Origin: a virus | Strand: one strand, 5' to 3' | Length of the DNA: 38,759 bases | IMG/VR virus record: IMGVR_UViG_3300038956_000256 | Location: 1-38,759 of that record | Notes under the pieces: model-generated | The model's input: the letters and a program-made list of their open reading frames with translations, nothing else | Database searches by the model: none | What the model was told of the DNA's origin: nothing | In this document: piece after piece, positions 804 to 8,976 of the stretch | Layout: each line of letters opens with the position of its first letter | Position numbering within the stretch: the stretch's first letter is position 1 | Made by a program: the position numbers and the translations under genes

Positions 804-933
804 GTGGTTCTTTCATTACAAGGCTCCTGTATTTTTTTAGCATGTGATTATTAGAACATTAACTATATAAATTATTACATATTTAAATAATTCATTTTAT
901 TTATTTAGTTGTTTAAAAGTTTACCCTGTTCAG

Positions 934-956
934 TGAAGATAGTAAGTTTTATATAT
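934..956 (+). promoter_or_regulatory. Repeated BRE/TATA promoter, copy 1
   Basis: TGAAGATAGTAAGTTTTATATAT upstream of the 992 ATG; same motif at 1899 and 2288. Confidence 0.85.
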
Positions 957-982
957 GTTGTGTGCCTTGTATATTATAGAGG

Positions 983-1872: not shown

Positions 1873-1898
1873 TTATTTTTTTATATTTACTTTCATCA

Positions 1899-1942
1899 CT
1901 GAAGATAGTAAGTTTTAAATACTTTGAAACCTATTACTATAT
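1899..1942 (+). promoter_or_regulatory. Repeated BRE/TATA promoter, copy 2
   Basis: CTGAAGATAGTAAGTTTTAAATACTTTGAAACCTATTACTATAT preceded by a T-rich terminator-like tract. Confidence 0.85.
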
Positions 1943-2241: not shown

Positions 2242-2287
2242 GCAGTTAAGTTAATTTCACTACCCTTATTTTTATTTACTATCTTCG

Positions 2288-2331
2288 CTGAAGATAGTAA
2301 GTTATATATACTTTGAAACCTAATAGTATAT
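2288..2331 (+). promoter_or_regulatory. Repeated BRE/TATA promoter, copy 3
   Basis: CTGAAGATAGTAAGTTATATATACTTTGAAACCTAATAGTATAT preceded by a T-rich tract. Confidence 0.85.
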
Positions 2332-2382
2332 TGTACAACCTAAGAGAAAACGATAATAACAAAGTAATTCGGAGGAAAAGAA

Positions 2383-2778
2383 ATGATACTCAATTTGACC
2401 CAACACACAGCTACCCAAGAACAGAAGGCTCAACTCGTTGTTGAGCCTAGAATGTGCAAAGATAAGATAAGGGAACTCCTCACATTTGAGGAGATCCCTA
2501 CGAAGGAAGAAATTGAAGCAAGAGCCTCAGAACTTGCGGAAATCGCAGTGTCTGAGGCAAATCATTATGCGGGCGAAACAGACAATAGAATCTGGATCAC
2601 CCGTGTAATGATTGGTGGCGCTCCGTATCTCATGGGGGCACTTGAGAAAGCACTCCGAGAATGCGGGTTTACCCCCGTGTATGCTTTCTCAAAAAGGGAA
2701 AGCGAGGAAATCCCACAGCCTGATGGGTCGGTGAAAAAAATACAGGTGTTCCGACACATCGGATTCGTGGAGGTCTGA
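2383..2778 (+). CDS. Csx20/Csx15-like Rossmann-fold protein, candidate cyclic-oligoadenylate ring nuclease
   Basis: N-terminal ILNLTQHTATQEQ and C-terminal MIGGAPYLM...G.TPVYAFSKRESEE...DGSVKKIQVFRHIGF resemble the Csx20 consensus as recalled (L.SH.LT.EQ ... PVY...KR.S.E...G.V.K...F.H..F); GGAGG RBS. Confidence 0.55.
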   Translation: MILNLTQHTATQEQKAQLVVEPRMCKDKIRELLTFEEIPTKEEIEARASELAEIAVSEANHYAGETDNRIWITRVMIGGAPYLMGALEKALRECGFTPVYAFSKRESEEIPQPDGSVKKIQVFRHIGFVEV

Positions 2779-2783
2779 TTACA

Positions 2784-2966
2784 GTGATGTCAATATTGCC
2801 CGTTGCAATTTCTACAGTGTACGGTAAGTGCCCATACATCCGCTCATGTGAGCGGATGTATGGAACTATGCGTTGTAACGGGGAAAAAAATAGCATCAAA
2901 AACTGTGGGTTGCTTGAATACTTTGTAAAGTATTCAAGAAAGGATTGTGAAATCTGGGAGGTATGA
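2784..2966 (+). CDS. Small Cys-rich protein
   Basis: CPYIRSC-x8-CN-x8-CG; GGAGGT RBS; coupled to the next ORF. Confidence 0.6.
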   Translation: MMSILPVAISTVYGKCPYIRSCERMYGTMRCNGEKNSIKNCGLLEYFVKYSRKDCEIWEV

Positions 2967-3406
2967 AAATGACCTCAAGACTCAACGCACTGGAGAACAG
3001 TTTTCCTCCAGAGATTCTAAATAACACATACAAAAAAATAGTAAATAAATTATTGTACGCAAGACTTCGTGAAATGGAAATCGAGGGTGCATCTGATAGA
3101 CAGATGTATTCTGAAGTATTCAAATATGTTAGCCCAAAAGAAATCCCCGCGTTTCCGGGGGGGCTGAATTATGTAGAACGTGGAGCATATTGCTTCAGGT
3201 TTGTCGCGAATAGAAAATACTATCGAAGCCCGTGCTTCGTAGTAGAGCCAGTTCCAGATGTAGATCAAGCGCTAAAAGAGATTAATATTAGATTTAATTA
3301 TGATCTCACATCAGAGGAATGTAAAAAAGCCAAACTTCTTGAAATAGAAGGGCTTCCATATGACAAAAAATATTTGCGCCCACCTCGGACAAAATGGACG
3401 TTGTGA
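2963..3406 (+). CDS. Hypothetical protein
   Basis: 147-aa ORF, GGAGGT RBS, ATGA overlap. Confidence 0.75.
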   Translation: MKMTSRLNALENSFPPEILNNTYKKIVNKLLYARLREMEIEGASDRQMYSEVFKYVSPKEIPAFPGGLNYVERGAYCFRFVANRKYYRSPCFVVEPVPDVDQALKEINIRFNYDLTSEECKKAKLLEIEGLPYDKKYLRPPRTKWTL

Positions 3407-3438: not shown

Positions 3439-3822
3439 ATGTCTGAAATCGAAATCCTCAACATGCATTATACTCCCTGCGTCCCTGACCTCTGCGTAAG
3501 AATTGACAGAAAATCAAAATGGGGAAATCCTTATAGAATGCGCTCGGAAAGTGAACGCATGCATGTAATCAGGAGATACGCCTACTATATTTTAGATAGT
3601 AAGTTACTAGATGATCTTCACGAACTTAAAGGTAAATGGCTTGCATGTTGGTGCTATCCAAAGCCCTGTCATGGTAACGTCTTGAAGTACCTCGCTGAAC
3701 ATCCTGAACTTGTCGGGATGTATCGAGGCGGGGCGATTTCGAGGGATGAAATAGTAAGGAGAATCTGGCAGGCGAACGGGTGGAAATGTGAGACAGTCGG
3801 GCAACAAATGACGGTATTTTAA
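3439..3822 (+). CDS. DUF4326 family protein
   Basis: IDRKSKWGNPY...LHELKGKWLACWCYPKPCHGNVL signature. Confidence 0.9.
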   Translation: MSEIEILNMHYTPCVPDLCVRIDRKSKWGNPYRMRSESERMHVIRRYAYYILDSKLLDDLHELKGKWLACWCYPKPCHGNVLKYLAEHPELVGMYRGGAISRDEIVRRIWQANGWKCETVGQQMTVF

Positions 3823-6336: not shown

Positions 6337-8976
6337 TCAGTCCTCTAAATTATCGCTATCGGTCGCCCTCTTTCCTGCTTTCACGCAGGCGAGTATTTTA
6401 TCTTTAAGCCTCTTCCCTCTAGGTGCTGAGAAATCTGGTCCGACCGCGTCGCGGAGTGTCGTTTTATAATAATCATGTGTTCCCGTGAAAATCACATGGT
6501 CAAATTCAGGCTTCCCATCGCGTTTTTTCATCAATAACCTGTCTCGTTTTTCCTGAAGTTCCTTTACCGTATGCGATCTTTCGATTTCAACTTCAATCCC
6601 GATTACAGTTTCGTTAGCAGTCCCCTGGTTGAAGACTAGCTTAACGTCTACTTCCTGCCCTGTGCCGTAGTCGTCAGTAGTTGCGACTGCTCCCATTAAT
6701 GAGCATTCGCCTGCTAGAGCGCAGGCGAAGAGGTAATGTTCCTTTGTCTGGTTTTTGATGTGCCCGTCCTCATTTTCGAGCCCGACTTCAACATAAACCG
6801 TCTTTTTTCCAGCCTGGAATGGATGGTCGAATTGCTCCATTTCGTAGCCGGGTACCCGTATAACCTGATTAAGGTTAATACCAACCAGCCAGTCTTTTAA
6901 AAATACTTTATGTTTATCCTTTACCCACTGTACTCTTTTATCCAGGCTGAATCCAGCCGACTGCTCTGTATTCTCAGAATCAACTTTCAACGATTTCCCA
7001 AAGATTACCCTCTCATCATCTGGTGTAAGTGAATTGAAATAGTTTATACGCGTGTCTCCGATGATCAGGAGGCCCTTTCCTTTTCCTTTCGCTTTAAGTC
7101 TCCTTATGTCGTTTCTAGTGAGGTTAAATTCTTTAACTAGGGGTTTGATGTTATAGGCCGACATGTTAGAAAGCAGGAGCACGTAGTCGGAATTTGTTTT
7201 CATCATGTTTATCATCTCTGGGGGCACGCCTGCTAGGTCTTGGAATACTATTTTAAGATGACCTCCAAAACTGCGAAGCTCTCTGAACATCCTTTCGATT
7301 ACGTGTCGCATCCGTGGAATTTTAACCAGGTTTGCGCCCTCGTCCAAGGTAATGAAAATATGTTTTTTAACCTGCCCCTTCGGGACACATTGGATCTTTG
7401 TGTTAATGATCCCTGTTATAAGCAGGATCATCGCGTCCTGGATATGAGGGGTATCAATGAGCTCGGAAAGGTCAACCATTGTAAATCTATTCCTAAGCTT
7501 TAGGATGTTGTTATTTACAAGGAAACCGTAAGGCCCTTTCTTGGTTATCATGGTTGTATTGTTATAGATTGCAGCAAGGACAGAATTCACATGAGGAGCT
7601 TTGTGCTCATCGTCTTGCATCCACTCATATATGAGAGCCCGCCAGTCGTCGAAGTTAGGCCAGAAGTTGCCATCTTCCCATTTGTCAAGGTTGATGACGT
7701 TTCCGTTGTCGTCTATCACTCCTCGCCTGTGGTATAACTCTACCAGCGAGCTATATACCCAATTTCTCTGAGGGTCTGAAAAACTGTCACCAATTAGGAG
7801 CCCGATGACATCAGGCAAAAGAGACATATGTTTAGAAAACGCAAGCTGGTAGGATCCTAATGAGGTATCCATTCTTTCCGGATCAAAGAAGACCTGGAAC
7901 ATGTTAGGGTTAGAGTCAGCATCTTGTGCTCCCGCCCGCTTATGCCCGATCTTAATAAGCTGCCCACCAAGTTCTTTACATACATTAATGTGGTTTGTGT
8001 CTTCGTCAGCTTTCGGGACTATATGGAAAGCCTCGTCTCCCATCTCAAGAACTCTTTTATCGTCCTTAAGAAGCTCAGTCGACTTCCCGGACCCCGACTT
8101 CCCGATTACTATAGCATGACCTGAGACCAGGCTTCCGTCTTTGAAATTCAGGAAAATTGGGTTATTTGTATCCTCATTGATCCCTAGCCAGTGGCCCGAC
8201 TTCGCTAGCCTCGGGTTTTTATTTCTTAACGGGCTGGTCCTGGCGACCATTTCGCCTGTTGTGGTCGAGAGTAACCTTTCTTTTACAAACGGCGTCGGCA
8301 TCATCATATAATATGCATCGACTTGTCCATATTCTATAATTTCATGTATTACCCTCTTACCGTCCAGGAGAGCAATAATCAGGCTCATAAGGTCGTCTAC
8401 GTCTTTTGTAGTCTTCCCCTTTACCGCAACCAGGAGCGAGAATTCAAACATTCTCATACGGCCCTCGAATACTGCCCGGTTATACTCGTTTATTCCCTCA
8501 GCTATGTAATCTATAATTTTATCGTGAATATTTTTAAAGACGCCATCGTTTTCTGATTCCTGCATTGCAGCCGCCAGGATGTTTTCTCGCCTGGCGTTCT
8601 CTAATGCTTCGATCTCGTCTCGTGGAGGCAGGGGTATAGCAGTCTGCGTAATTCCTATGCAGGCATTTTCCCCAGTCGGAATGTCTAGCAGGTCGTCGAT
8701 AAGCCTAAGATCCTTTCTAGGGGGTATTCCCTGCCTATTAGGATTAATTGGACTTGGATCTCCTACGCTTATAATCTGCATATAGCAGCCGTCAGCGTAT
8801 AGATACCGCCCTCCCCATTTTGGCTTAAAAACAGTAGGAGAAAGGGACAGGACGAGCCGCCTGTCGATCTCCTCAAACTGTTTATACCAGTTTTTAACGT
8901 CTAAAAAACATTTGAATTCAGCCCAGCTTCTCTTTATGGACTTTGGAAGGATCTTATGCATTATTTGAATACTCAT
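6337..8976 (-). CDS. virB4: VirB4/TraC-like secretion ATPase with a C-terminal nuclease-like extension
   Basis: 879 aa; Walker A IGKSGSGKS, Walker B ITLDEGAN, FRELRSFGG and FQDLA motifs typical of VirB4/HerA-FtsK; C-terminal EVDVKL...IGIEVEIERS. Confidence 0.85.
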   Translation of the reverse strand: MSIQIMHKILPKSIKRSWAEFKCFLDVKNWYKQFEEIDRRLVLSLSPTVFKPKWGGRYLYADGCYMQIISVGDPSPINPNRQGIPPRKDLRLIDDLLDIPTGENACIGITQTAIPLPPRDEIEALENARRENILAAAMQESENDGVFKNIHDKIIDYIAEGINEYNRAVFEGRMRMFEFSLLVAVKGKTTKDVDDLMSLIIALLDGKRVIHEIIEYGQVDAYYMMMPTPFVKERLLSTTTGEMVARTSPLRNKNPRLAKSGHWLGINEDTNNPIFLNFKDGSLVSGHAIVIGKSGSGKSTELLKDDKRVLEMGDEAFHIVPKADEDTNHINVCKELGGQLIKIGHKRAGAQDADSNPNMFQVFFDPERMDTSLGSYQLAFSKHMSLLPDVIGLLIGDSFSDPQRNWVYSSLVELYHRRGVIDDNGNVINLDKWEDGNFWPNFDDWRALIYEWMQDDEHKAPHVNSVLAAIYNNTTMITKKGPYGFLVNNNILKLRNRFTMVDLSELIDTPHIQDAMILLITGIINTKIQCVPKGQVKKHIFITLDEGANLVKIPRMRHVIERMFRELRSFGGHLKIVFQDLAGVPPEMINMMKTNSDYVLLLSNMSAYNIKPLVKEFNLTRNDIRRLKAKGKGKGLLIIGDTRINYFNSLTPDDERVIFGKSLKVDSENTEQSAGFSLDKRVQWVKDKHKVFLKDWLVGINLNQVIRVPGYEMEQFDHPFQAGKKTVYVEVGLENEDGHIKNQTKEHYLFACALAGECSLMGAVATTDDYGTGQEVDVKLVFNQGTANETVIGIEVEIERSHTVKELQEKRDRLLMKKRDGKPEFDHVIFTGTHDYYKTTLRDAVGPDFSAPRGKRLKDKILACVKAGKRATDSDNLED

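Follow-up and report, generated by a model that had tools for sequence, protein, structure and literature searches.

A virus-encoded Csx20/MJ1673-family protein as a candidate cA4 ring nuclease in a putative head-tail virus of archaea

The DNA analysed here (the window, 38,759 nucleotides) is the whole of the linear IMG/VR record IMGVR_UViG_3300038956_000256, for which CheckV estimates a completeness of 59%. At 2383..2778 on the + strand, the window carries an ORF with an ATG start codon for a 131-aa protein of the Csx20/MJ1673 family, a candidate cA4 ring nuclease that belongs to a viral and mobile-element clade of this family. A ribosome-binding site, GGAGG, was read from the sequence at 2371..2375 (+), 7 nt 5' of the ATG. 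The gene forms part of an accessory cassette that adjoins a DNA methylase. A small Cys-rich ORF of 60 aa (2784..2966, +), whose protein is conserved in a related fragment, begins 5 nt past the Csx20-like stop codon, and its own stop is overlapped by 4 nt by a 147-aa ORF (2963..3406, +). The latter gave no family match in the profile scan of the window ORFs and is found together with the Csx20-like gene in related contigs. The next gene in the same-strand cassette encodes a DUF4326 protein (3439..3822, +). Comparison of the 131-aa protein with eight relatives gave dN/dS values of 0.06-0.09, leaving out the comparison with the L003 relative, in which the N-terminus is out of register; the protein is thus under purifying selection. 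A perfect hairpin with a 15-bp stem (CCATACATCCGCTCA / TGAGCGGATGTATGG) and a 2-nt loop is also present at 2833-2864, inside the Cys-rich ORF directly 3' of the Csx20-like gene.

A 66-nt promoter-like element occurs three times in the window, each time on the + strand: at 911..976 (core 934-955), upstream of ORF 983-1636; at 1877..1942 (core 1900-1921), upstream of ORF 1987-2241; and at 2266..2331 (core 2289-2310), upstream of the Csx20-like gene. The 22-nt core, TGAAGATAGTAAGTTWTAWATA, has exactly three copies (934, 1900 and 2289), where shuffled sequences lead one to expect 0, and each copy terminates in a TTTATATA-like box, the core lying 37-80 nt 5' of a start codon. In the third copy the core is preceded by a T-run and ends in the TATA-box-like sequence TTATATATA, and the motif lies 80 nt upstream of the Csx20-like ATG. 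Syntenic virus contigs of ~50 kb contain a 14-nt core four times, one copy again lying 80 nt before the orthologous gene. The statement in the preliminary description that the gene has its own copy of a repeated promoter therefore holds, with the spacing kept in relatives. Weak PADLOC matches of ORF 983-1636 to Cas4 (E ~1e-3) lie in a region rich in Lys and Glu and were set aside.

The window encodes a large terminase (TerL), a portal, a MuF-like protein, an integrase and an MCM helicase, along with PKD and beta-helix 'disaggregatase-related' proteins and a tRNA-Gln. In the phage collection, the MCM matches archaeal viruses only, and a 90%-identical copy of the 131-aa protein bears the label of a Methanosarcina thermophila MAG. 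On these two grounds the window is read as a Methanosarcina-type head-tail virus: its gene content marks it as a head-tail virus of archaea, and the host is probably Methanosarcina or close kin. Positions 2-148 of the window hold a truncated 5' gene that is intact, as a 334-aa C5 DNA methylase, in two related ~50-kb contigs (L166/L167, 1-7331), where an HK97-type capsid and tail-completion module lies ahead of it. The capsid end of the genome is therefore missing from the window, which is consistent with the completeness estimate. At 6337-8976 (-), this head-tail virus genome encodes a protein of 879 aa whose P-loop domain is of the TraG/VirB4 type, and which is conserved in the syntenic 50-kb contigs L166 and L167 and in L003 and L064.

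The gene was also said to have no cas neighbours. This was borne out, as the profile search of the virus record found no Cas10, the scanned ORFs included no other cas families and the repeat search of the window found no CRISPR array. The gene is thus not next to a type III CRISPR-cas locus, as is expected for a viral copy.

The likeness to the Csx20/Csx15 families put forward in the preliminary description was now computed. The NCBIfam model NF040559 (CAS_Csx20) matches residues 3-129 of the 131-aa protein over model positions 2-122 of 124, with E 2.3e-10 and 40.9 bits. This score lies below the curated equivalog cut-off of 70 bits, whilst cas-linked copies score 132-138 bits, and the protein is therefore best assigned by these profile scores as a member of the family or of a subfamily, and not as an equivalog of the CRISPR-linked enzyme. 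Four Csx20-type models of PADLOC match, among them Csx20 (E 1.9e-10 and 6.4e-8), Csx15/20 (1.1e-7) and the CARF_HEPN_CSX20 fusion model (E 7e-6). Local Pfam gave zero matches to the protein, DUF1874 included, even at E up to 10, in agreement with the earlier view that it is unlike AcrIII-1. Close relatives are assigned to a newer Pfam family, PF27247 ('MJ1673'), and for relatives at 95% identity this assignment is precomputed. When a profile of the protein's own clade (64 sequences) was compared by hhalign with a profile of cas-linked Csx20, the two aligned over 122 columns with 97.8% probability (E 9e-13). The cas-linked profile is a narrow sample of 15 sequences, made up of two genomic seeds scoring 132-138 bits and 13 of their relatives; one of the seeds lies between a 415-aa ORF and a 328-aa ORF, ~6 kb from Cas10.

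The columns that are invariant in the two clades coincide. Numbered as own clade/cas-linked clade, they are H8/H10, Q14/Q16, P39/P42, G79-A80/G75-A76, S103/T96, R105/R98 and H125/H117. At position 18, all of the Methanosarcina-virus group has Leu in place of a near-invariant Gly. The viral protein resembles CRISPR-linked Csx20 in length (~125-131 aa), in its full-length profile match and in the shared invariant residues, and its predicted alpha/beta CARF-like fold and homodimeric state may be further points of likeness. It differs in its sub-cut-off score, in lying on a separate deep branch and in being encoded by a virus away from cas genes, and the motifs have diverged: LNLTQH, MIGGAP, FSxRES and FRHxGF in the viral protein correspond to LMNH, QGDFGAT, ATTxR and FxHxRF in CRISPR-linked Csx20.

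An AlphaFold2 model built from the clade alignment (pLDDT 94.3, pTM 0.84) has a beta-alpha core and a long C-terminal hairpin. The preliminary description had looked to a structural comparison with CARF and Csx20-like folds, and the outcome was divided. Among predicted structures the matches are clear: the nearest ESM Atlas clusters (TM 0.84 and 0.81) consist 100% of PF27247 proteins, with 81-82% viral members, and among the predicted structures of BFVD there was a match at E 2.6e-13 and TM 0.85. Solved structures of CARF, SAVED and Crn1 proteins, on the other side, matched weakly. A sequence search of the PDB gave chance matches only, none of them to Crn1, and Foldseek against the PDB returned nothing at E ≤ 0.001. 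The best Foldseek rows (E 0.04-0.09) included cA4-bound Cam1 and the Crn1 protein Sso2081 (8htw_B, E 0.09, TM 0.35), and in a wide VIA-align search SAVED/CARF sensors scored Z ≤ 6.2 and were interspersed with generic Rossmann folds; these weak PDB matches include Cap5, CalpL and a viral SAVED ring nuclease. Such matches are compatible with a CARF-like fold, as reported for models of Csx20 (PMC12409355), but do not prove CARF membership.

A symmetric homodimer is supported by structure prediction. The predicted pairing gave an ipSAE of 0.60 against 0.00 for the best control, and the runs shared at least 96% of contacts with pLDDT at or above 89. Among proteins of solved structure, 20 of 30 that are pairs of one chain reached this mark, as did 1 of 23 that are single chains. 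The predicted interface is formed by residues 77-88, 126-131 and 35-44 and passes through the conserved IGGAP segment.

The family comprises 1789 clusters at 50% identity (E ≤ 0.001), and relatives were found on at least 199 viral contigs of IMG/VR. Relatives in the cultured-phage collection are those of Rhodothermus phage RM378 (45.8% identity), Pasteurella phage Pm86 and an uncultured Caudoviricetes record. In the tree, a long and fully supported branch separates cas-linked Csx20 from the clade of the window protein, a deep branch of the Csx20/MJ1673 family carried mostly by viruses and mobile elements. Taxonomy within the clade is scrambled, with 24 changes against a mean of 25.3 for shuffled labels. 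The window protein groups with the other Methanosarcina-virus copies, and the group falls, though weakly supported in this position, within sequences of digester bacteria. The tree fits spread by mobile elements better than a recent capture from a host cas locus, given the narrow cas-linked sample.

A convincing Cas10 was found in ~10 of 50 cellular genomes with a relative, these genomes being incomplete MAGs. Many cellular carriers are without Cas10, especially small Patescibacteria genomes, and where Cas10 and the relative could both be placed they lay on separate contigs. An apparent distance of 11 kb between a relative and Cas10 (L052) was rejected, as the contig numbering puts the relative on another contig. 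The neighbours of relatives (144 ORFs) include phage genes (Rha, ERF, Gam), TrmB-type regulators and housekeeping genes, and none of the 25 neighbour families listed is a cas family. TrmB-family regulators were the commonest neighbour family (7 of the 144 ORFs, within 3.5 kb, L008-L057), mostly in Patescibacteria, and these may be Aca-like regulators.

Apparently bacterial surroundings (sigma-70, PTS and conjugation genes) of copies that are 83-84% identical, in GCA_900198705.1, were rejected as an assembly artefact. The two sequences concerned (L002 and L063, 893 kb and 2.17 Mb) were strung together from short stretches of metagenome sequence with spacers of 100 N between them, and their GC jumps from 0.28 to 0.62; Methanosarcina-virus genes have therefore been falsely placed beside bacterial genes.

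From these data, the gene product is best explained as a viral cA4 ring nuclease that acts as an anti-type III CRISPR protein, a reading to which we give a probability of roughly 0.6. It is the best supported because Csx20 is a confirmed cA4 ring nuclease (PMC12409355) and the invariant residues are retained. Csx20 proteins from type III loci degrade cA4 and, at high enzyme concentration, also cA3 (Hoikkala et al. 2025, PMC12409355). According to the proposed mechanism, a TATA-type promoter of its own would drive transcription of the gene, the GGAGG site would serve for its translation, and its product would pair as a symmetric homodimer. The homodimer would bind the cA4 made by Cas10 of a host type III CRISPR system on detection of viral RNA and, in the manner of CRISPR-linked Csx20, would cut it into linear products in a metal-independent reaction. 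Loss of cA4 would keep cA4-dependent CARF effectors off, and the protein would in this way be an anti-CRISPR. The mechanism presupposes a host (probably Methanosarcina) in which cA4 signalling is directed at the virus. Methanosarcina strains have type III systems (PMC7694759), and the Csx3 protein of M. mazei is a cA4 ring nuclease (PMC7371418). The genome of M. acetivorans, used as a control, matches Cas10 models.

Several observations speak against a ring-nuclease function. The NF040559 score is below the cut-off, the branch is long and Gly18 is replaced by Leu. The many carriers without Cas10 and the housekeeping neighbours suggest that the function of the clade may in some settings be a different one. 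No solved structure was matched significantly. On the host side, type III-C is recorded for M. mazei Go1 (PMC7694759), and this subtype has few associated ring nucleases and usually no active cyclase (PMC12409355); a Csx1_HEPN search of the M. acetivorans control genome gave no match. Control searches with Csx3 and Cas_APE2256 had no match anywhere and are uninformative.

These observations can be accommodated in other ways. The viral and mobile-element branch may be a lineage with a function of its own, exchanged between archaeal viruses and bacteriophages that live in the same habitats, with a target perhaps beyond type III cA4, either a broader range of cyclic oligoadenylates (cOA) or a nucleotide signal from outside CRISPR. 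We regard this as unlikely; it would account for the lack of Cas10 in most cellular carriers, many Patescibacteria among them. Another proposal is that the protein neutralizes another nucleotide signal instead of or besides cA4, such as cA3 or another cyclic oligonucleotide, in CBASS-like or other defence. The secondary activity of Csx20 on cA3 (PMC12409355) would allow this, and the deep divergence of the viral clade from cas-linked Csx20, the scarcity of Cas10 among cellular carriers and the presence of CBASS SAVED sensors among the weak structural neighbours point in the same direction. However, the only family members to have been tested prefer cA4, the residues common to cas-linked Csx20 are conserved and none of the contexts examined has a link to CBASS, so that this proposal seems distinctly improbable.

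The protein could also have no counter-defence role, being instead a small CARF-like protein for nucleotide metabolism or regulation in the virus or its host. This is kept alive because many carriers are without Cas10; in Cas10-less Patescibacteria genomes, relatives adjoin housekeeping genes and TrmB-type regulators, and the clade is assigned to the ring nucleases by homology. Membership in the same family as a proven ring nuclease, the strong enrichment in viruses and the location in an accessory cassette beside the DNA methylase argue the other way, and we doubt this alternative strongly. That the protein is a cOA sponge, binding cA4 tightly without cleavage and blocking signalling by sequestration, is very unlikely: phage sponge proteins are known to act by sequestration, an option that has been considered for Csx15 (PMC12409355), and a strong repeated promoter would suit stoichiometric action, but both clades keep two His, an Arg and a Ser/Thr without exception, more than binding alone would be expected to demand, which may point to a catalytic role.

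The anti-type III ring nuclease reading agrees with the preliminary description in its substance, since the family, the invariant residues and the viral setting all support the candidate. The claim that it is new is overstated. Csx20 has been reported in four phage genomes of the Millard database (PMC12409355), and phage csx20 has been proposed as a co-opted counter-defence gene under Aca14 control, in a csx20-aca14 operon of Pasteurella multocida (NAR 2026, PMC13551039). Viral Csx20 as counter-defence has thus already been proposed for phages, and the addition made here is the archaeal-virus member; in the literature we found no report of Csx20 in an archaeal virus and no biochemical test of any member of the viral clade.

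The phage Csx20 homologues fall in the same viral clade as the window protein (45.8% identity to RM378 p002) and have the same proposed counter-defence role. They belong to bacteriophages and prophages, whereas the window gene belongs to what we read as an archaeal tailed virus and has an archaeal TATA-type promoter, and, unlike in the csx20-aca14 operon, no recognizable Aca-type regulator adjoins it. With AcrIII-1/Crn2 (DUF1874) the likeness is confined to the proposed model, that of a small viral homodimer destroying cA4; the two have no sequence similarity and belong to different fold families, and AcrIII-1 is experimentally proven whilst the window protein is a candidate. The resemblance to Crn1 (Sso2081) and to the cOA-binding CARF/SAVED domains is a weak one in the Rossmann-like CARF core, at the Foldseek and Z values given above, with no sequence match.

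If active, the protein would represent a second, unrelated family of ring-nuclease anti-CRISPRs in archaeal viruses, after AcrIII-1, and the first ring-nuclease anti-CRISPR for viruses of methanogens. Activity would also mean that Methanosarcina viruses of anaerobic digesters are under real selection from cA4-based type III immunity. Being abundant in the Methanosarcina-virus group and highly conserved there, the gene is an easy candidate for biochemical tests.

The gene is not confined to genomes of the window's type. A different archaeal virus-like contig of 71 kb (L164, GCA_001577815.1) carries an 82%-identical copy, and the gene is therefore common to distinct virus backbones. This contig also encodes Cdc6/Orc1, Phage_capsid_4, PKD and two IS605 OrfB/TnpB genes. 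Elsewhere in the family, two or three Csx20/MJ1673-like domains are found in tandem in some proteins (P0121, 436 aa; P0124, 483 aa; P0141, 486 aa), and in an Atlas bacterial cluster of 740-aa proteins MJ1673 is present in 88% and MJ1674_2nd in 15% of the members. Such covalently linked MJ1673 repeats are reminiscent of the relation of SAVED to CARF.
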